A stretch of DNA of 64,000 nucleotides from IMG/VR virus record IMGVR_UViG_3300025372_000001; one strand, given 5' to 3'. A model generated the notes under the pieces. It had not been told where the DNA came from, did no database searches, and saw only the letters and a list, made by a program, of their open reading frames with translations. Shown piece after piece: positions 5,660 through 37,002 of the stretch; the stretch's first letter is position 1; every line of letters starts with the position of its first letter. A program made the translations under genes and the position numbers. Origin of the DNA: a virus. Its lineage: Duplodnaviria > Caudoviricetes.

Positions 5660-6967
5660 ATGGCAACTTCAAACGAGTCCACATTACAGGTATCAAAAGA
5701 TTATATTTTTAATCCAAAAACAAATAAATATGTTTTTCAAACAGAGAAAAAGTTTGGGAGAAATTTAGTTTTTTCCAAGGACAAAATTGATACAATTATT
5801 AAGTTGTATTCAAATTTTGATAAGCAACCAGCAACGGCAGGAGAGATTGCATTAAAAATGGGTATTCCAAAAGAAACCATTGTGCATATTCTCCGTGTAT
5901 TAAAAATTACACATGATGCATTGCCCTTCTCTAAGGAAAAAATTGAAGAAGTGGAAGAAGATGTATTGGTGGAAGAAATGGCGAATTCTAAGTCATTTAA
6001 TATTCAACAGAAGTTTGAAAAGAGGGATTGGAAACAGACACAAGAAGATGCCGAGAAATGGCGGGAATTACAGTATAATGTGATTCAACCAATTGAGAGA
6101 AAATTAAGTAATTGGAATCCCCCAAAGTATATCCCGCTTAAAAAGAAAGTAACAAAGGGCAAAGTTGATATTATTTGCGCTCTCAGTGATTTACATGTGG
6201 GGGAATTTACCAATAGTGAGAAATTATTTCATGGAAGAGATTATAATAGTCAGATTGCAGAAAAGATTATTAATGATTACTGTGAGAATGTTATTTCTGA
6301 TTTAAAGGAAAAGAATCAATCGGTGGATACTGCTTATTTGTGTGTGTTGGGTGATTTTTTGCATTCGGCATTTAATGGAACTACTGCCCAAGGAACAAAG
6401 TTGACCAGTGATTTGATCAATGAAGAACTTTTTGAAAAAGGACTGAATATTTTAACTAAGTTTATTAGTAGATTTAATGAAGCCTTTCCAAAAGTGGTGG
6501 TTAAGGTCCAGCGCGGCAATCACGAGGGGGTAGTTGCATCATATATTGGATATGCTCTGCAACAATATTTTAGATTAGATAAGGCTATTGATATTGAAGT
6601 GGTTAAATCATGGGCAACCATTTTTAAAGTTAAGAAGTTAGCAGTATTAGCATTTCATGGCGGAAGTGATACATTAAAACATGCAAATGTTCCTAGACAA
6701 GATGGGCAAATGCGGTCATATATTCAGGAATTGTTTTTAGCTAAACAGAAGGATATTGCTGATTGTACTGACCGGATAGTTATTTCTGGTCATACGCATG
6801 CCTTTACTCATAAAGACATGGGATCATTTGATTTCTATGTCATGGGAACAAGTGTCATTGGAGATTGTTATGCTGATACAATGAATTTTCCTAGATCAAA
6901 GGCTAGACAAAATTGTCTTATTATTAAGGATAGTAAAGTAGCAGAAACTCTTCATTATTACTTTTAA
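5660..6967 (+). CDS. calcineurin-like metallophosphoesterase/nuclease with N-terminal HTH-like region
   Basis: SDLHVG, LGDFLH, GNHE, FHG, GHTH; TAAATA 5648-5653. Confidence 0.85.
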   Translation: MATSNESTLQVSKDYIFNPKTNKYVFQTEKKFGRNLVFSKDKIDTIIKLYSNFDKQPATAGEIALKMGIPKETIVHILRVLKITHDALPFSKEKIEEVEEDVLVEEMANSKSFNIQQKFEKRDWKQTQEDAEKWRELQYNVIQPIERKLSNWNPPKYIPLKKKVTKGKVDIICALSDLHVGEFTNSEKLFHGRDYNSQIAEKIINDYCENVISDLKEKNQSVDTAYLCVLGDFLHSAFNGTTAQGTKLTSDLINEELFEKGLNILTKFISRFNEAFPKVVVKVQRGNHEGVVASYIGYALQQYFRLDKAIDIEVVKSWATIFKVKKLAVLAFHGGSDTLKHANVPRQDGQMRSYIQELFLAKQKDIADCTDRIVISGHTHAFTHKDMGSFDFYVMGTSVIGDCYADTMNFPRSKARQNCLIIKDSKVAETLHYYF

Positions 6968-8839: not shown

Positions 8840-9319
8840 ATGCCGAAAGTAATATATAATTTCCTAAAAAATGCTGATAAAATTGTTTCCCTTGCTAAAG
8901 AGCATGATTCATTATTTGTGAAACGTTCGGGAGAAGATGCCCATGCAGGATTTATTCCAGGAGTTTGTTCCCGTTTCCAAACTCTTAAAGATGAACATAT
9001 GTCTGCTGAATTAAAAGAAGCAATTTTTGATGAAGCAAATGAATGGGACGAAGATACCCGAGATTTCTGGGAATTTATTCAAATACAAAAATATGAACCA
9101 GGAGATTATATTGTTCCTCACCGGGATTCATATCGTGTTAGAAAACTTCATTTAATTACCTTGACAAGTGGTAAATTTGATGGATTAGTATGTGAGAAAG
9201 ATCAAGAACTTATTTTTATTCCAGATGAAGCAGGACAATATGTGGACTTTCCTTATACGGCAGCACATTATGTTTCCCCTGTTAAAGAGTTAAGATATAG
9301 TTTAGTTATGGGAATTTAA
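8840..9319 (+). CDS. 2OG-Fe(II) oxygenase
   Basis: QIQKYEPGDYIVPHRD (HxD), AAHYVSPV (distal His), RYSLV. Confidence 0.85.
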   Translation: MPKVIYNFLKNADKIVSLAKEHDSLFVKRSGEDAHAGFIPGVCSRFQTLKDEHMSAELKEAIFDEANEWDEDTRDFWEFIQIQKYEPGDYIVPHRDSYRVRKLHLITLTSGKFDGLVCEKDQELIFIPDEAGQYVDFPYTAAHYVSPVKELRYSLVMGI

Positions 9320-10071: not shown

Positions 10072-10629
10072 ATGATTAACTATAAACTTTTAGATGATTC
10101 TATCAGCTTTTATACCTCGAAAGGTTATAACAGAATCGAAGCACCCTGGACCACTTCTGAGTATATTAATAATATTACTGCTCCGAAAGGAGTAACACAA
10201 TTTCAATTTAAACATAATGATAAATGTTTAGTTGCATCAGGAGAACAATCGTTTTTATATCTTTATCTTAAAGGGTTTCTCCCTAAAGGTAAGTACCAAA
10301 CGACCACTCCGTGTTTCCGAATGGAAACATTCGATCTTACTCATACCAAATACTTCATTAAGAATGAGTTAATTATTACTGATGATGTAAATTTGGACAA
10401 TTTGTTAGATATGGTTTCATATGCTAAAACGTTTTATTCTCGCTATTTAAACAATGTTACCAAAGAAAAGACTGAGAATGGGTATGATTTGGTATGTAAG
10501 GGCGTTGAATTAGGCTCTTATGGAATTAGACGCTGCGAATTCTTAGAATGGATATATGGTACTGGATGCGCAGAACCGAGGTTATCCACCGTTATTAAAT
10601 TACAAAATAAAAGATATGGGCTATCATAA
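10072..10629 (+). CDS. minimal class II aminoacyl-tRNA-synthetase-like catalytic domain
   Basis: Motif 1-like KGYNRIEAPW, motif 2 PCFRME...YFIKNEL, GVELGSYG, motif 3 GTGCAEPRL; only 185 aa. Confidence 0.75.
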   Translation: MINYKLLDDSISFYTSKGYNRIEAPWTTSEYINNITAPKGVTQFQFKHNDKCLVASGEQSFLYLYLKGFLPKGKYQTTTPCFRMETFDLTHTKYFIKNELIITDDVNLDNLLDMVSYAKTFYSRYLNNVTKEKTENGYDLVCKGVELGSYGIRRCEFLEWIYGTGCAEPRLSTVIKLQNKRYGLS

Positions 10630-10861
10630 AACACAAATTCCTAAAGGAACTATTGGACAATTTTCCAAAATCGAAGAAGAATTTTTGGAATTAAAAGACG
10701 GAGTTGAACAGGGAGATAAAATTCTTCAAATAGTAGAATTAACTGATTTGATTGGAGCAATTGATTCTTATGGTTTTTATCAATTTGGTCTTTCTTTAGA
10801 AGATTTAATTAAATTCACACGGAAAACTCAACAAGCCTTTAAAGATGGAAGCCGAGAATAA
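10616..10861 (+). CDS. MazG-like all-alpha NTP pyrophosphatase
   Basis: Start MGYHKTQIPKG at 10616; SKIEEEFLELKD...VELTDLIGAI (EExxE...ExxD). Confidence 0.65.
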   Translation: MGYHKTQIPKGTIGQFSKIEEEFLELKDGVEQGDKILQIVELTDLIGAIDSYGFYQFGLSLEDLIKFTRKTQQAFKDGSRE

Positions 10862-11002
10862 ACAAAGTGTAACTCTTGAAGAAGCTCTTACTCAAGTAAG
10901 GAAATCTGAAGAAGTACAACGGAAAGCATTTGAAGAAAAACGAAAGAAACAAAGAAACGGATTAATAAGAAGCGGAGAAGCGCATAAAGAAACCGAAAAG
11001 AT

Positions 11003-11031
11003 TTGACTCAAACCCATAAACATGTTATAAT
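11003..11031 (+). promoter_or_regulatory. sigma70-type early promoter
   Basis: TTGACT-17nt-TATAAT with extended TG; ATG 8 nt downstream. Confidence 0.85.
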
Positions 11032-11039
11032 AACTCACG

Positions 11040-13034
11040 ATGAAAATCATTCTTGAAAAAACACAAAACTCTATTAATAAGCCGACTAACTATATCTTTG
11101 TCGGGGACTGCTCAGGCTCCATGTGGTCTTCAATTAAGACTCTCAGAGATACATTGCTTGCCACTAAGAATTTAATTGGGCCACAAGACACTGTTTCCCT
11201 TGGCTGGTTCAGTGGCTATAATAAATTTGACTGGATCATTAAAGGTGCATCTAATCTCACAAACTTTGATGCCCTAATTGAACAAAACGTTTATGCTCGC
11301 GGAGCGACACATTACGAACAAATCCTCAAGAGTATTGACGAAGTTATTCAAAATGTCTCCACTTTAACAGGCCATAACAATATTAATTTCATGTTTCTTT
11401 CAGATGGTCAACCAAATGACCGTTCTTCTGAACGAGACATTCTTTCCATTTGTAAAGAATTAAATGGTAAGTTTGCTTCGGCAAAAATTATCGGTTATTC
11501 TGGTTATTATAACCGTAAACTTCTGCTCGATATGGCAGAAGCAATTGGCGGTCAAATGTCCCACATTTCCGACCATTATGAACTAGATACGGATTATAAG
11601 ACCTTCTTCTCTAATCGTGTTCAAGTTAAGAATATTCCTCTTATCAAGAAATTTGATCTAGTTTGGCAAGTATCTACTAACGATGTTCTACTTCTAAATC
11701 AAAAAGAAGATAATTCTGTTGATATTCAAGATAACGGTGAAGAAAGCGAACTATTTGCTATTGATTATTCTGAATTGAATGGATTAACAAGTATCAATGA
11801 TGCAAAGTTTGTTTATTCTCTCGCTTATATTCTAAGTCAGAAGAATAAGGCGAATCTAGGCGTTCAATTACTTCGGACAGTAGGAGATTATAAGATGGCA
11901 CAATCCCTCCGTAAATCCTTCACTGTTGCTCAGAAAGGTGCAATCGAGAACATGATTCGGACTTTTGCTCTTCTTGGCGGAACACCCGTTATTACTGAAC
12001 AACCTAATACAACCAAACTAGAAACCTTCTTAGAAGAACTGGATTCTAAAGAAGTATATCTAGACACTAGTAATAGTGATTATACTTCTATTTCTCGCAA
12101 AGGAACAAATGTTTCTAAAGTGGAATGGAAATTAACGGATGAAAAGGCAAAGATTATTCAAGTTGTTCCTAATGAGAATCGCCCAAATATTTCTCTTCTT
12201 ACTGTTCGCCAAGGGGAAATTACTAATGTAACTGATGAAGATTTAGCCAATAGAATTACTTCTTTTAATGCTACTGCTCCTAATCCTATTATTTTTCCGA
12301 TCAAATCAACAACATATCGTAACTATTCTTTAGTTGCTAATGGTGATTTTAATTTCAAGAAACTTGTTCTTGAGGAGAACGGACAAACTTCCGTGATTTA
12401 TCCTGATAATGATCTTGATATTTTTGACGAAGAAGTGAAATCAATTCATATCAAGGATTTCGTTAATCTTAATAAGACCTTGATTAAGGAGAAAGCACAT
12501 GTATCTACTTTAAACTTCTTTATTAAGAATAATTCAGAACAAAAGCATGCAGAAGATTGGAGAGTTAGTAATTATGGAGCAGAAGGTGCTAAATTACTTG
12601 AAGAAATGGGCATTGATTATGCTGGACGGTATTCTCCTAAGAAGGAATCTATTCCAGTTGCAGAAGATGGTGATTATTTAGAATTTCTTGAAATTGACGG
12701 ATATATTAAAGGAGCATCTACTGTTTCTGCTTCTGCCTCATTTAAGAAGTGGGAGAAGAAAGCAAAGCCAAATGCTGCTGATGAAATATTATATCCTCTC
12801 TTTGAGAAATATACTGAAATGCAAAAAGCATTATCTAAAGAGCTGTTTGTTGAGATGCTTCAAGGTATTTTAGAAGGAGTTCAAAAGACTACTAAGATTC
12901 TATCCAGAAAATTAGCTGCAATGAAGTTCTATCTTGCTACAACGAATTCGTGGTTCGAAGGAATTGATAAAGCGGATGAATTTGAATATGATGGATTTGT
13001 GGTGAAAGTTAAAACTGCTAAAGAATATATCTAA
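11040..13034 (+). CDS. large vWA-domain protein
   Basis: MIDAS DCSGSMWS, GATHY, FLSDGQPND. Confidence 0.85.
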   Translation: MKIILEKTQNSINKPTNYIFVGDCSGSMWSSIKTLRDTLLATKNLIGPQDTVSLGWFSGYNKFDWIIKGASNLTNFDALIEQNVYARGATHYEQILKSIDEVIQNVSTLTGHNNINFMFLSDGQPNDRSSERDILSICKELNGKFASAKIIGYSGYYNRKLLLDMAEAIGGQMSHISDHYELDTDYKTFFSNRVQVKNIPLIKKFDLVWQVSTNDVLLLNQKEDNSVDIQDNGEESELFAIDYSELNGLTSINDAKFVYSLAYILSQKNKANLGVQLLRTVGDYKMAQSLRKSFTVAQKGAIENMIRTFALLGGTPVITEQPNTTKLETFLEELDSKEVYLDTSNSDYTSISRKGTNVSKVEWKLTDEKAKIIQVVPNENRPNISLLTVRQGEITNVTDEDLANRITSFNATAPNPIIFPIKSTTYRNYSLVANGDFNFKKLVLEENGQTSVIYPDNDLDIFDEEVKSIHIKDFVNLNKTLIKEKAHVSTLNFFIKNNSEQKHAEDWRVSNYGAEGAKLLEEMGIDYAGRYSPKKESIPVAEDGDYLEFLEIDGYIKGASTVSASASFKKWEKKAKPNAADEILYPLFEKYTEMQKALSKELFVEMLQGILEGVQKTTKILSRKLAAMKFYLATTNSWFEGIDKADEFEYDGFVVKVKTAKEYI

Positions 13035-13732: not shown

Positions 13733-14434
13733 ATGGAAGAATTGACCGCAGATAATATAATCCTAATTGGAGACACTCACGAGCTTACGTTCGTCGATCT
13801 TTTGGAGCATTATAAATTAGAGAATTTCATCATGCTCGGGGTTGGCGATCACGGCCTGGGGTTCGCCCCTCATTTATTCGATATGATTAATATCAATAAA
13901 TTAAATGATTATTGTAAAGAACATAATGGGAAGATATTAGTATGCCGGGGCAATCACGATCTTCCATCTGCATTTATCGAGAATTCTCCATATAATACCG
14001 AATTTGTTAAATTTCTTCCCGATTACACTTATAAACTAATCAACGGAAAAGTATTTCTATTTGCGGGTGGAGCAATATCCATTGATCGGCAATTGAGAAC
14101 AGAAGGAATCGATTATTGGAAAGATGAAGGATTTGTTCTTCCACAGGATTATCAAGAGTTGCCTCCCTGTGACGTTCTAATCACCCATTCTGCGCCTTCT
14201 GACGTTCTTGAGTATGAAGACCTTACTCGTATCTCAGGATGGTTTAAAAACGATCCTAGCCTTAAAGAAGAGCTGATAGAAGAAAGACGATTGATTAGGA
14301 AGTTATATGAACATGTTAATTGTTCTAACAACTGGTTTGGGCATTTCCATGCAGTGTCAAGTGTTCGAATAGATGGAACATGGTTTAGAGGATTAGATAT
14401 TAATGAAGTTTTAGACATTACAAGAGATATTTAA
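13733..14434 (+). CDS. calcineurin-like metallophosphoesterase
   Basis: GDTH, GVGDHG, RGNHD, THSAP, FGHFH; ATG at 13733. Confidence 0.9.
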   Translation: MEELTADNIILIGDTHELTFVDLLEHYKLENFIMLGVGDHGLGFAPHLFDMININKLNDYCKEHNGKILVCRGNHDLPSAFIENSPYNTEFVKFLPDYTYKLINGKVFLFAGGAISIDRQLRTEGIDYWKDEGFVLPQDYQELPPCDVLITHSAPSDVLEYEDLTRISGWFKNDPSLKEELIEERRLIRKLYEHVNCSNNWFGHFHAVSSVRIDGTWFRGLDINEVLDITRDI

Positions 14435-14873: not shown

Positions 14874-15410
14874 ATGAAGTTTTTAGAATTTGTTAAATTG
14901 ATTCAGGAAGGAAGCGCAATTCGATCCTTTTCTTGTTTAATGTTGGATTGTCAGGACTTATATCTACATATTGCCAAGATACATGAGCAGATTGCTCCAG
15001 AAGATGTTTTTGACGATGAACCGGGACACGGGTACGAATTAGAATCACACGTTACTTGCGCGTATGGATTTTCAGAGACTAAACCTCAAGATGTTATCCC
15101 TAAATTAGACCTTGTTCCTTGTAGATATAAGATCAAGGGATTATCATTATTTGAGAATGAGAAGTTTGATGTTTTGAAATTCGATATTCAATCAGCAGAA
15201 TTGAATAAATTAAATAAACAGATTATGGATAATTTTGATATTACCACTTCGCATAAGGTGTATCATGCCCATCTAACGATTTTTTACGCTAAAAAGGGGA
15301 TGGGTGAAAAATATTTAAAAATTAAATCCCCTTTAATTGGTGAAACTTTTATTTCAAATCGCTACATATTTTCTAATCCAAACAGTGAAAAAGTTTGGAT
15401 AGATGTCTAA
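14874..15410 (+). CDS. 2H phosphodiesterase (Acb1/gp57B-like), late
   Basis: SHVTCAYG and AHLTIFY (two HxT motifs); TAAATA 14861-14866. Confidence 0.8.
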   Translation: MKFLEFVKLIQEGSAIRSFSCLMLDCQDLYLHIAKIHEQIAPEDVFDDEPGHGYELESHVTCAYGFSETKPQDVIPKLDLVPCRYKIKGLSLFENEKFDVLKFDIQSAELNKLNKQIMDNFDITTSHKVYHAHLTIFYAKKGMGEKYLKIKSPLIGETFISNRYIFSNPNSEKVWIDV

Positions 15411-15862: not shown

Positions 15863-16427
15863 TGTTTAAATCCTCTCTAACACTCATTAATACTCGTCCT
15901 AATAGGTTGTGCCCTTGCCATGTAGAAACATCGTGAGCAAGGGGATTATCCGCAGATAGACCGCAAGACCATACTGGATCAACGGGATTTGCTTCGCAAA
16001 GTATTAAATGTCCAGTTGATAACAAATATTCTTTCAATTCTGGATTTTGTTGATATTTGAATTTGTTAATTCTCCGAACAGCAGCAAAGCGTTGTTTAGC
16101 CCAAACTTCTTCATTATAGTTTTTGACTTCTCTGCCCAATCGTTTCTGTTCTTTCGGATGTTTTTCTTTTAGAATTTTATCAGCAGTTTCACAGTCATTG
16201 AATAAACATGCTTTATAATACATCATTGCTTGTTCACAGCAATTGAAGGAAATATTACTAGTAATATCTAAACCATCTAGATATGAATATTGTTTAATAT
16301 CAGGAAAGAATAATCGAGGAATCACTAGTTTATGTTCTTGTCCTTTAAATCCTCCGTACCATTGGCTGAAAATTCCACGGAAGAAGAAAAGTATATTATT
16401 GTGAATAGGATAATCGGGTTTAATCAT
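15855..16427 (-). CDS. NADAR (YbiA-like) family protein
   Basis: FSQW, EQAMMYYKACLF, QKRLGREVKNY, KYQQNPEL, EANPVDPVWSCG, GHNLLGRVLMSVR. Confidence 0.92.
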   Translation of the reverse strand: MIKPDYPIHNNILFFFRGIFSQWYGGFKGQEHKLVIPRLFFPDIKQYSYLDGLDITSNISFNCCEQAMMYYKACLFNDCETADKILKEKHPKEQKRLGREVKNYNEEVWAKQRFAAVRRINKFKYQQNPELKEYLLSTGHLILCEANPVDPVWSCGLSADNPLAHDVSTWQGHNLLGRVLMSVREDLNNE

Positions 16428-17209
16428 AAAGGTTTTCTATCTTGTATATGATAGGTATCTGCTAATGTTTTATAAATTTTGTTCAAATCTGCACCATAAA
16501 ATGAACTACATTCAAAGCTGTTAATTTCTAGCAAGTATAAACTACCACGACTTTCACAAATATCAATACAAAAATTTGATATATTTTGAAAATAAGTATG
16601 TTTAGCAATTTCTTTAGCAAACCAAATAACATGTTCAGGAATTTCCGAAGAAATAATCAATTCATCATTAACCATATATTGACTACCCGAACAATATTCA
16701 TTATTGATAAAAATGGTTCGCCATTCTTTATGAATGGATTTAACTGGCGACGACATGCATATAATAGATTCTTTAATATTCTTATTCTTTTGAATAAAAT
16801 TATATTCTTCAATCAGTTTATCCTTAGAAGGAAATACTTGTCCTGAAAAGGTTTTGAAGCCATTAGTAGGACGAAGGAACAGAGGGAAATCGAAAGAACT
16901 ATAATGATCAATGAAGAATTTCAAATCGTTGAAATAAGTGTTTTTCGGAGATAATGTGTAGTTACGTAAAGCCGGAAGCCAATGTAATGCATCAAATTCT
17001 TTGAATTTTTTTCCAATATATTTGGCAATATTTAAAGAATAACGTCCAAATAAAGCATGGCGAAGTTTCTCAGGATTAATGCGAGAACTTACAATACTCA
17101 TCATATCAATTTCTCGAATATCGAAATATTGAGAAATGATAGAAGGAGTATCCTGTCGTTCATCCTCGGTAAACAAATCTTTTTCTAAGTAAATTATAGG
17201 TTTATTCAT
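16424..17209 (-). CDS. ATP-grasp protein, R2K/DUF4343-like
   Basis: FLRPTNGFKTFSGQV, EWRTI, SGSQY, CIDI, LLEINSFECSSFYG. Confidence 0.8.
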   Translation of the reverse strand: MNKPIIYLEKDLFTEDERQDTPSIISQYFDIREIDMMSIVSSRINPEKLRHALFGRYSLNIAKYIGKKFKEFDALHWLPALRNYTLSPKNTYFNDLKFFIDHYSSFDFPLFLRPTNGFKTFSGQVFPSKDKLIEEYNFIQKNKNIKESIICMSSPVKSIHKEWRTIFINNEYCSGSQYMVNDELIISSEIPEHVIWFAKEIAKHTYFQNISNFCIDICESRGSLYLLEINSFECSSFYGADLNKIYKTLADTYHIQDRKPL

Positions 17210-36910: not shown

Positions 36911-37002
36911 AGCAGGGTAGAGAAACAGTTGATCTCGTCGGGTTCATATTCCGAAGGCTACTCAAAAGCGCATAATTGGTGCAACACCAGCCCCTGCAAC
37001 CA
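36911..37002 (+). tRNA. atypical initiator-type tRNA-Met(CAT) with a 20-nt variable region
   Basis: AGCAGGG/CCCTGCA acceptor with 1:72 mismatch, ACCA end, TCGGG-TTCATAT-TCCGA anticodon arm; degenerate T loop TGCAACA. Confidence 0.75.

Follow-up and report, generated by a model that had tools for sequence, protein, structure and literature searches.

What would a virus do with the catalytic core of an aminoacyl-tRNA synthetase (aaRS) that has no tRNA-binding arm and whose gene overlaps that of a putative nucleotide pyrophosphohydrolase? The question is raised by two genes at positions 10072-10861 of a 64,000-nucleotide, AT-rich (32% G+C) stretch of DNA from a virus of the Caudoviricetes (IMG/VR record IMGVR_UViG_3300025372_000001); this whole stretch is referred to below as the window. 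The first gene encodes a 185-residue stand-alone class II aaRS catalytic core of the SerRS type (mini-SerRS), and the second an 81-residue protein resembling the all-alpha nucleoside triphosphate (NTP) pyrophosphohydrolases of the MazG and HisE type. We find that the two genes are one conserved, obligately linked module and that the larger protein represents a class II aaRS catalytic core in minimal form, nearest to SerRS both by structure and by profile. As a tentative reading, which we favor while regarding it as far from settled, the pair may constitute an obligate two-part enzyme in which the core activates a serine-like amino acid with ATP and the partner serves the same non-canonical pathway by breaking the pyrophosphate bond of a nucleotide. 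No published study of such a mini-SerRS/MazG pair was found in the literature searched.

The two genes form one conserved module

The core gene (10072-10629, + strand; PHROG 4806) runs from an ATG at 10072 to a TAA at 10627-10629. For the partner gene (10616-10861, + strand; PHROG 6408), the mechanically called open reading frame (ORF) opens at 10556, but its start was set at the ATG at 10616 because an M-G-Y-H N terminus is conserved in all 43 aligned relatives. The two genes overlap by 14 nucleotides (ATGGGCTATCATAA; 10616-10629, + strand), with the partner in the +1 frame, and lie in a tight array of + strand genes. In the gene pairs of relatives, the two genes likewise overlap slightly (-1, -4, -14, -17, -20) or are separated by a few bases. 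A programmed frameshift that would yield a fusion protein at this locus was considered and rejected, since the overlap contains no slippery heptamer and overlap lengths vary among relatives as they do in ordinary coupling.

By tblastn, the core was found in 276 phage records and the partner in 213. Represented among these records of cultured phages are phAPEC8-like and rV5-like coliphages, T4-like Acinetobacter phages, Caulobacter and Brevundimonas jumbo phages, Microcystis phages, XacN1, and 600-kb megaphages, the last being the closest at 61% identity. In every one of the 102 viral loci, 75 of which have distinct cores, the partner adjoins the core and shares its strand, one apparent exception having been resolved by a stop-to-stop search. 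The core precedes the partner in 71 of these loci and follows it in 29, and the two are fused in frame in the remaining 2; spacing is mostly between -20 and +13 nucleotides. Among the best 150 representatives at 50% identity, 6 are in-frame fusions.

The module is not confined to phages. A search of 185,579 prokaryote species genomes returned 36 matching loci, 35 of which contain a core ORF, and in these the partner is fused to the core in 11, adjacent to it in 20, and absent from the DNA examined in 4. The carriers are mostly metagenome-assembled genomes (MAGs) of Candidate Phyla Radiation (CPR) bacteria and DPANN archaea, including Saccharibacteria, Woesebacteria, WWE3, Magasanikbacteria, Woesearchaeota, and Nanoarchaeota. 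A fused form of 271 residues is also present on a contig labeled as a giant-virus MAG (IMGVR_UViG_GVMAG-S-1004661-13_000001; locus L076, 4998-5813), so the module reaches bins of eukaryotic viruses too.

Beyond the pair itself, linkage breaks down. Clustering of ORFs of at least 60 residues from the 75 unique loci revealed no conserved third gene, the best family, in 14 of 75, being an antisense artifact. Other fusion partners were likewise not found among the longer relatives of the core, of which one reaches at least 325 residues without a recognizable extra domain, and the other extended core forms also carry no recognizable extra domains. A complex prediction for core and partner gave a score of 0.00, which counts neither for nor against binding. 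The first-pass annotation of this DNA had named conservation of the gene pair as a check on its proposal; adjacency in every viral locus, in both gene orders and with natural fusions, bears the linkage out.

A minimal class II catalytic core nearest to SerRS

An AlphaFold2 model of the core, built on an alignment of 79 diverse relatives that also underlies the conservation analysis below, has a predicted local distance difference test score (pLDDT) of 95.3. Compared with the PDB by Foldseek, the model gave at least 500 matches at E <= 0.001; among the matches listed, all 50 are class II aaRS chains, with SerRS, PylRS, and PheRS-alpha at E values of about 1e-10. An all-against-representatives structural search with VIA, which is independent of Foldseek, places SerRS on top (Z 19.7, 18.5, and 18.4 over 183-185 residues, root mean square deviation 2.4-2.5), with HisRS and HisZ at Z 15-18, PylRS at 17.1, the amino acid:carrier protein ligase Bll0957 at 16.7, GenX at 13.5, and AsnA at 13.0-13.2. 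The class II aaRS fold that the first-pass annotation had expected is thus supported by both the confidence of the model and the SerRS match.

Profile comparison points the same way. Single-sequence searches of the PDB with the core and with the partner gave nothing meaningful, and SerRS was reached by the family profile alone: the hidden Markov model of the core family matches SerRS chains at E 1.6e-6, and hhalign against five SerRS sequences taken from CPR and DPANN genomes (407-436 residues) aligns core residues 6-181 to SerRS positions 173-395 with a probability of 97.4% (E 9.1e-12). This alignment opens at SerRS position 173 and hence covers the catalytic core alone, without the N-terminal tRNA arm. 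The Pfam matches of the core are confined to sub-threshold hits to class II core families (tRNA-synt_2 at E 2e-5, 2d, and 2b), with no further Pfam domain, and neither NCBIfam nor PADLOC holds a family model or defense-system model that fits the core or the partner. Among PHROGs, the core falls into phrog_4806 at E 1.2e-39, automatically labeled "histidyl tRNA synthetase", a label that we consider misleading for this family. Clustering divides the family into 2026 groups when sequences are joined at 90% identity, and into 1488 (E <= 0.001) when the threshold is 50%. The assignments of core and partner to their families are far beyond chance (PHROG 4806 at E 1e-39, PHROG 6408 at E 1e-25, and 1488 clusters).

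Nineteen positions of the core are invariant (W26, S56, E58, Q59, P80, R83, F95, K97, E99, D139, E146, G148, S149, Y150, G151, R153, T164, P169, and R170), and class II signature motifs 1, 2, and 3 are all present, with R83, F95, and R170 among the invariant residues. Motif 1 (G18-Y-N-R-I-E-A-P25; 10123-10146, + strand) corresponds in the alignment to motif 1 of SerRS; at least 90% of relatives have P25, and the adjoining W26 is invariant. The segment S56-G-E58-Q59 (10237-10248, + strand) is the counterpart of the amino-acid-binding T-x-E motif of SerRS, its three invariant residues S56, E58, and Q59 aligning to T/S-x-E. Motif 2 (F82-R83-M-E85 ... H91 ... F95-I-K97-N-E99; 10315-10368, + strand), with R83, F95, K97, and E99 invariant, aligns to the SerRS pattern fRxE...FxKvE but has a loop about 7 residues shorter. 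In the strand D139 ... E146-L-G-S149-Y-G-I-R153 (10486-10530, + strand), where D139, E146, G148, S149, Y150, G151, and R153 are invariant, the hhalign alignment puts E146 and S149 on the E and S of the SerRS ExxS position, and R153 is an invariant arginine specific to the family. Motif 3 (G163-T164-G-C-A-E-P-R170; 10558-10581, + strand), in which T164, P169, and R170 are invariant, aligns to SerRS N-x-T-x-x-x-x-R, T164 matching the threonine that precedes motif 3 and R170 the arginine of the motif itself.

Every aligned SerRS adenylate-site position is therefore invariant in the core family (S56/E58, R83, F95/K97/E99, D139, E146/S149, T164, and R170); by reference to the Thermus thermophilus SerRS structures, they presumably contact ATP and Mg as well as the amino and hydroxyl groups of serine. 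The earlier description of a 185-residue protein with motifs 1-3 and no further domain proved accurate, in that the motifs are conserved in the 79 relatives and the whole protein aligns to nothing but the SerRS catalytic core.

SerRS is thus the best structural and profile match of mini-SerRS, which keeps, as invariant features, motifs 1-3, T/SxE, FxKxE, ExxS, and the threonine before the motif 3 arginine. The differences are nonetheless substantial. In SerRS, an N-terminal coiled-coil arm binds the long variable arm of tRNA-Ser, and mini-SerRS has no such arm. Besides having a shortened motif 2 loop, mini-SerRS lacks the insertion found in SerRS between the ExxS strand and motif 3; about 185 residues stand against the matching stretch of about 220 (173-395) in SerRS proteins of 407-436 residues; W26, Q59, Y150, and R153 are additional invariant residues. 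The core moreover has a MazG-like partner and coexists with true SerRS: in all five CPR/DPANN genomes with the pair that were checked, a full-length SerRS scores above the family cut-off. Mini-SerRS is accordingly not a SerRS proper, as it lacks the arm and reaches 11.5 bits against the serS model (TIGR00414), for which the cut-off is 301.65. The missing tRNA arm, the shortened motif 2 loop, and the SerRS retained by carrier genomes together argue that the core does no housekeeping charging of tRNA-Ser.

The first-pass annotation had instead likened the protein to truncated class II paralogs such as EpmA and AsnA. A likeness to truncated aaRS paralogs of the amino acid:carrier protein ligase, AsnA, or EpmA kind does hold, and the protein is a minimal class II core as proposed, but by structure its nearest relative is SerRS (Z 19.7 as opposed to 13.0-13.5). 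AsnA and EpmA/GenX, which derive from class IIb, are likewise class II cores that stand alone, and their acceptors are not tRNAs; the E-x-x-S-x-x-x-R strand of mini-SerRS resembles that of AspRS and AsnA; they are, however, larger (about 300-330 residues), match the structure less well (Z 13.0-13.5), and have no MazG partner.

This comparison raises the alternative, to which we assign a very low probability, that the core is an AsnA-like small-molecule ligase, in which ammonia, an amine, or a thiol would attack an activated carboxylate to give an amide or thioester, with the partner in a supporting nucleotide role. AsnA, listed in a 2022 review of aaRS paralogs (PMC9437257), offers the precedent of a class II core working without a macromolecular acceptor, and the spacing D139...E146-x-x-S149-x-x-x-R153 recalls the AspRS/AsnA strand: core residues 114-153 align weakly to positions 450-489 of the AspRS model (HMMER, E 0.12). 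Set against this, the structural match to AsnA (Z 13.0-13.2) is clearly below that to SerRS (Z 18-19.7), profile similarity points to SerRS, and such a ligase gives no reason for an obligate pyrophosphatase partner.

A closer structural match is Bll0957 (PDB 3mey; Z 16.7 over 183 aligned residues), reportedly characterized by Mocibob et al. in 2010 as an amino acid:carrier protein ligase. Like mini-SerRS, ligases of this type are truncated, SerRS-related class II cores without a tRNA-binding domain; they use a non-tRNA acceptor, which for mini-SerRS is inferred. They are zinc-dependent proteins of about 300 residues encoded beside their carrier protein (PMC9437257), whereas the companion of mini-SerRS is a protein of the pyrophosphatase type. 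Clustering of the 75 unique loci revealed no conserved carrier-protein gene near the pair, nor is there a carrier domain among the annotated recurrent neighbors.

The corresponding alternative, that the core loads amino acids onto proteins or carriers in the manner of EpmA/GenX or the carrier-protein ligases, with a host or phage protein as acceptor, possibly the partner itself, has in our view only a slim chance of being correct. It draws on the fact that the studied truncated class II paralogs that transfer amino acids load proteins, EpmA acting on EF-P and the amino acid:carrier protein ligases on carrier proteins (PMC9437257), on the good structural match to Bll0957, and on the small protein that is the core's one constant companion. 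Yet the surroundings of the pair show no conserved gene for a carrier protein, EF-P, or an EpmB-like protein, GenX matches the core less well (Z 13.5), and the partner keeps a complete acidic catalytic motif, which makes it enzyme-like rather than carrier-like.

An 81-residue partner of the HisE/MazG type

The partner belongs to PHROG 6408 (E 1.3e-25), a family whose function is listed as unknown. Its most informative feature is an acidic motif, E21-E22-x-x-E25-x-x-D28 ... E41-x-x-D44 (10676-10747, + strand), in which all six acidic residues are invariant across the 43 relatives and which is in register with the EExxE...ExxD motif of the MazG protein SSO3215 (PDB 1vmg). The pattern EExxE..D/ExxD is the signature by which the all-alpha NTP pyrophosphohydrolases bind metal (Moroz et al. 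2005, as cited by Iyer et al. 2022). Against the Pfam family PRA-PH (PF01503, HisE), the copy in the window scores 16.3 bits with a cut-off of 21.3 (E 0.013); of the 43 relatives, 17 match PRA-PH at E <= 0.01, the best at 1.5e-5, and matches to other families do not recur.

The predicted structure is less distinctive. The model has three helices and a pLDDT of 94.8. HisE or MazG chains make up nearly all of the top 26 Foldseek rows, yet at E 0.2-1.8; the best MazG and HisE matches by VIA (Z 5.3-5.9) are mixed with unrelated helical hairpins scoring as high; and in a profile search of the PDB the MazG protein 1vmg appears at E 0.29, short of significance. On the strength of the acidic motif and the PRA-PH profile matches, not of the fold, we place the partner in the HisE/MazG superfamily, and it is probably active as an enzyme. 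The overlap with an 81-residue helical EExxE/ExxD protein and the MazG-like identity reported by the first-pass annotation both stand, the former with correct coordinates. An origin of the partner as a remnant of the SerRS N-terminal arm was rejected in view of the invariant EExxExxD/ExxD motif and the PRA-PH matches.

In two phages the partner is extended. In the rV5-like phage UPEC06 (L146, 4487-4990) it carries an additional N-terminal segment of about 85 residues, and in Acinetobacter phage Lazarus (L002, 3357-3980) an additional C-terminal segment of about 110 residues; neither segment is assigned to a family.

The combination of the two proteins has a counterpart in histidine biosynthesis, where HisZ, a class II aaRS paralog, and the HisE pyrophosphohydrolase serve one nucleotide pathway acting on phosphoribosyl-ATP. 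As in HisZ-HisG-HisE, the pair combines a class II aaRS paralog with a HisE-type protein: HisRS and HisZ match the core at Z 15-18, HisE chains are the top Foldseek rows of the partner, and PRA-PH is its sole recurring Pfam match. This likeness probably explains the PHROG label "histidyl tRNA synthetase". HisZ differs, however, in being without adenylation activity (PMC9437257), whereas the catalytic residues of the core are all invariant, and the sequence similarity of the core is to SerRS, not to HisRS. No HisG-like gene is conserved near the pair in the 75 unique loci.

A further parallel is one of logic alone, by function only. In the pairs of T4 gp56 dCTPase with gp42, and of MazZ with PurZ in Z-genome phages, an all-alpha pyrophosphohydrolase turns an NTP into an NMP for a second enzyme. 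That second enzyme is thymidylate-synthase-like or PurA-like, not a class II aaRS core, we know of no fusions in either pair, and base alteration by the mini-SerRS/MazG pair is not indicated by the present data.

Class II aaRS, including LysU and SerRS, are known to make diadenosine tetraphosphate (Ap4A) in a side reaction, and the pair could in principle make and turn over dinucleoside polyphosphates, the adenylate being en route to Ap4A or a related Ap4N, the partner trimming these products, and the system controlling alarmone or RNA-cap nucleotides. We consider this improbable. A reaction of this kind requires no macromolecular acceptor, which fits a bare core whose ATP-site residues are intact, and a pyrophosphohydrolase would be its natural counterpart. 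To our knowledge, however, the known Ap4A hydrolases are ApaH or Nudix enzymes rather than MazG-type proteins, and the strict conservation of the amino-acid-side residues S56, E58, E99, and T164 suggests a role for the amino acid that goes beyond that of a cofactor in catalysis.

A tentative two-part enzyme and its acceptor

Our favored reading remains that of an obligate two-part enzyme. Core and partner may be halves of one enzyme, as their occurrence in a single fused polypeptide in some organisms would suggest. Judging from the conserved residues, the core would bind ATP and a serine-like small amino acid to form an aminoacyl-adenylate and would then hand the activated amino acid to a non-canonical acceptor, while the partner would most likely split a nucleotide, itself a substrate or product of the core's pathway, at its alpha-beta pyrophosphate bond. 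The acceptor would most likely be of the nucleotide type, an adenosine 3'-end, whether on a free nucleotide or at the CCA end of an RNA. Such an acceptor is favored because the families nearest to the partner act on ATP derivatives and NTPs, because fusion implies a shared or sequential substrate, because the core family is acidic (median isoelectric point 5.2, net charge about -5) without a conserved basic surface, its conserved basic residues lying in the active site only, and because the most repeated neighbors of the pair are nucleotide enzymes (see below).

The first-pass annotation had put forward, as hypothetical options, a module that makes or clears an aminoacylated nucleotide or signal or that modifies a protein or a DNA base. 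A more specific proposal, for which the likelihood is low, is that the pair is a tRNA-independent aminoacyl-nucleotide synthase, in which the core would place a serine-like amino acid on the ribose of a free nucleotide instead of on A76 of tRNA and the partner would strip pyrophosphate before or after this step. If this is true, the aminoacylated mononucleotide could be a precursor for nucleic-acid modification, a signal, or a decoy, and the pair would represent a new class of aaRS-derived chemistry common to large phages, giant viruses, CPR bacteria, and DPANN archaea.

Several observations weigh against the two-part enzyme as we have outlined it. For every member of the family, adenylation, the identity of the amino acid, and the acceptor are all inferred. 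The amino acid may not be serine and the pocket may not be purely of the serine type, because R153 is invariant yet absent from SerRS and is matched, weakly, by HMMER (E 0.12) to AspRS position 489, which we take to be the arginine that binds the aspartate side chain. The structure of the partner by itself cannot be told from generic helical hairpins, and the copy in the window is below the Pfam cut-off. Among the 35 genome-assembly loci, the 4 mentioned above show no MazG-like gene within the DNA examined. Finally, three genomic settings point toward RNA: in an rV5-like phage, the genes immediately upstream of the pair encode a CCA-adding enzyme and a nucleotidyltransferase; the pair of Caulobacter phage C2 sits within a tRNA array; and in the window a metallophosphoesterase and a weak 2H-phosphoesterase match lie 3-4 kb downstream of the pair. 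The former is a calcineurin-like protein (13757-14434, + strand; PHROG 1649, E 5e-17), and the latter a weak match to the 2H / 2'-5' RNA ligase superfamily (14874-15410, + strand; Pfam E 3e-4, PHROG 755 "RNA ligase" E 5.5e-5).

These settings support what is the main rival explanation, namely that the pair acts on the 3' ends of tRNA or other RNA. The core would then aminoacylate CCA ends without an identity arm, the partner would process a nucleotide or an end modification, and the pair would belong to a phage toolkit for tRNA maintenance and counter-defense. Class II enzymes act on the 3'-OH of the adenosine A76, so the chemistry would be in keeping, and the CCA-adding or repair enzyme, the nucleotidyltransferase, the C2 tRNA array, and the two phosphoesterase matches in the window all suit an RNA end. 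A tRNA is also found within 5 kb of the pair in 19 of 78 viral loci. Furthermore, Iyer et al. 2022 (PMC9503650, section 3.7.3) interpreted an rV5/Mydo neighborhood as one of RNA repair on finding in it a pyrophosphatase of the MazG superfamily together with a tRNA ligase, a kinase, and a calcineurin-like phosphoesterase, leaving the synthetase-like gene unmentioned.

Nevertheless, we judge this explanation unlikely. Appendages that could bind RNA are absent from the core family, as are fusions to such domains, the loop of motif 2, which touches the acceptor stem, is short, and an acidic family with conserved basic residues confined to the active site is not what an RNA substrate would lead one to expect. 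No RNA-repair gene is conserved with the pair in the 75 unique loci. Proximity to tRNA genes is not clearly above background either: huge phages carry 15-55 scattered tRNAs, and in five huge-phage contigs the chance expectation is about 9-30% per 10-kb window, or about 0.9 loci expected compared with 2 observed. Because scattered tRNAs alone give about 9-30% by chance, no tRNA enrichment is shown.

Genomic neighborhood of the pair

Outside the window, the neighbors of the pair vary, with a few recurring themes that lean toward nucleotide metabolism. In phAPEC8, ribonucleotide reductase genes lie directly downstream of the pair, and NrdH and glutaredoxins lie near it in Lazarus and XacN1, the latter also having a macro domain nearby. 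Genes of NAD and ADP-ribose metabolism recur at viral loci (NMNAT-Nudix at 8 loci, NAMPT at 6, and NADAR at 5), whereas the neighbors at CPR loci include NrdR, AAA_28 kinase-like, uridine-kinase-like, and winged helix-turn-helix-Nudix genes. Metallophosphoesterases recur near the pair in both viral and CPR/DPANN loci.

At six DPANN/CPR loci, a small radical SAM gene (221-256 residues) adjoins the fusion on the same strand and in most of them overlaps it. In DPANN archaea and Woesebacteria, the overlapping genes lie at 5794-6477 in L114, 5810-6475 in L117, 5786-6472 in L118, 5810-6475 in L136, and 4237-5007 in L112, and a gene of the same family is present in L109. The best partial matches of this protein are to MoaA, a tungsten-cofactor maturase, viperin, and NrdG, and in Woesebacteria NrdR adjoins the radical SAM gene. 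It is possible that the radical SAM protein is a third member of the pathway in cellular carriers.

Within the window, several further genes deserve description. A 53-residue, highly charged ORF (10845-11006, + strand), for which no family match was found, overlaps the end of the partner gene by 17 nucleotides. A near-consensus sigma-70-like site (TTGACT-17-TATAAT with TG; 11003-11031) precedes a gene for a 664-residue protein (11040-13034, + strand), which carries an N-terminal DCSGSM motif (DxSxS, vWA/MIDAS-like) and belongs to PHROG 2426 (E 4e-57), a family of unknown function. Because this promoter-like site precedes the next gene, the arrangement suggests that the mini-SerRS/MazG unit closes a transcription unit in the window.

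Upstream, in the same gene array as the pair, a 159-residue protein (8840-9319, + strand) has weak matches to 2-oxoglutarate-Fe(II) oxygenases (Pfam E 0.015; PHROG 61 E 8e-6). An SbcD-like exonuclease (5660-6967, + strand) lies within 5 kb of the pair; together with the metallophosphoesterase and the 2H match, it is of an end-processing type as found in phage RNA-repair neighborhoods. The predicted activity of the R2K ATP-grasp family is the ligation of amino acids to proteins, and an R2K-clade ATP-grasp protein is encoded at 16424-17209 on the - strand (Pfam R2K_2 E 6e-9; PHROG 7313 E 8e-28). ARAGORN predicts a tRNA-Met at 36911-37002 (+ strand), which is unusually long at 92 nucleotides and may hold an intron or insertion.

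Significance

With about 180 residues, mini-SerRS would be smaller than any other natural enzyme of the class II aaRS type known to us. Engineered "urzymes" serve as models for the origin of aminoacylation, and the core is close to them in size, yet it keeps all adenylate-site residues. The family is at the same time very large (the 1488 clusters at 50% identity and E <= 0.001 noted above) and locked to one partner. Databases name its members histidyl-, seryl-, aspartyl-, or phenylalanyl-tRNA synthetases, and because of these names phage genomes are credited with translation genes that they probably do not have.

Under SerRS, the table of the 2022 review contains only SLIMP and the amino acid:carrier protein ligases (PMC9437257). 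Finding the product of the mini-SerRS/MazG pair would extend the still short series of aaRS paralogs whose chemistry lies outside translation, and it would probably expose an unrecognized step of nucleotide or RNA-end metabolism that is kept by minimal-genome parasites and symbionts.

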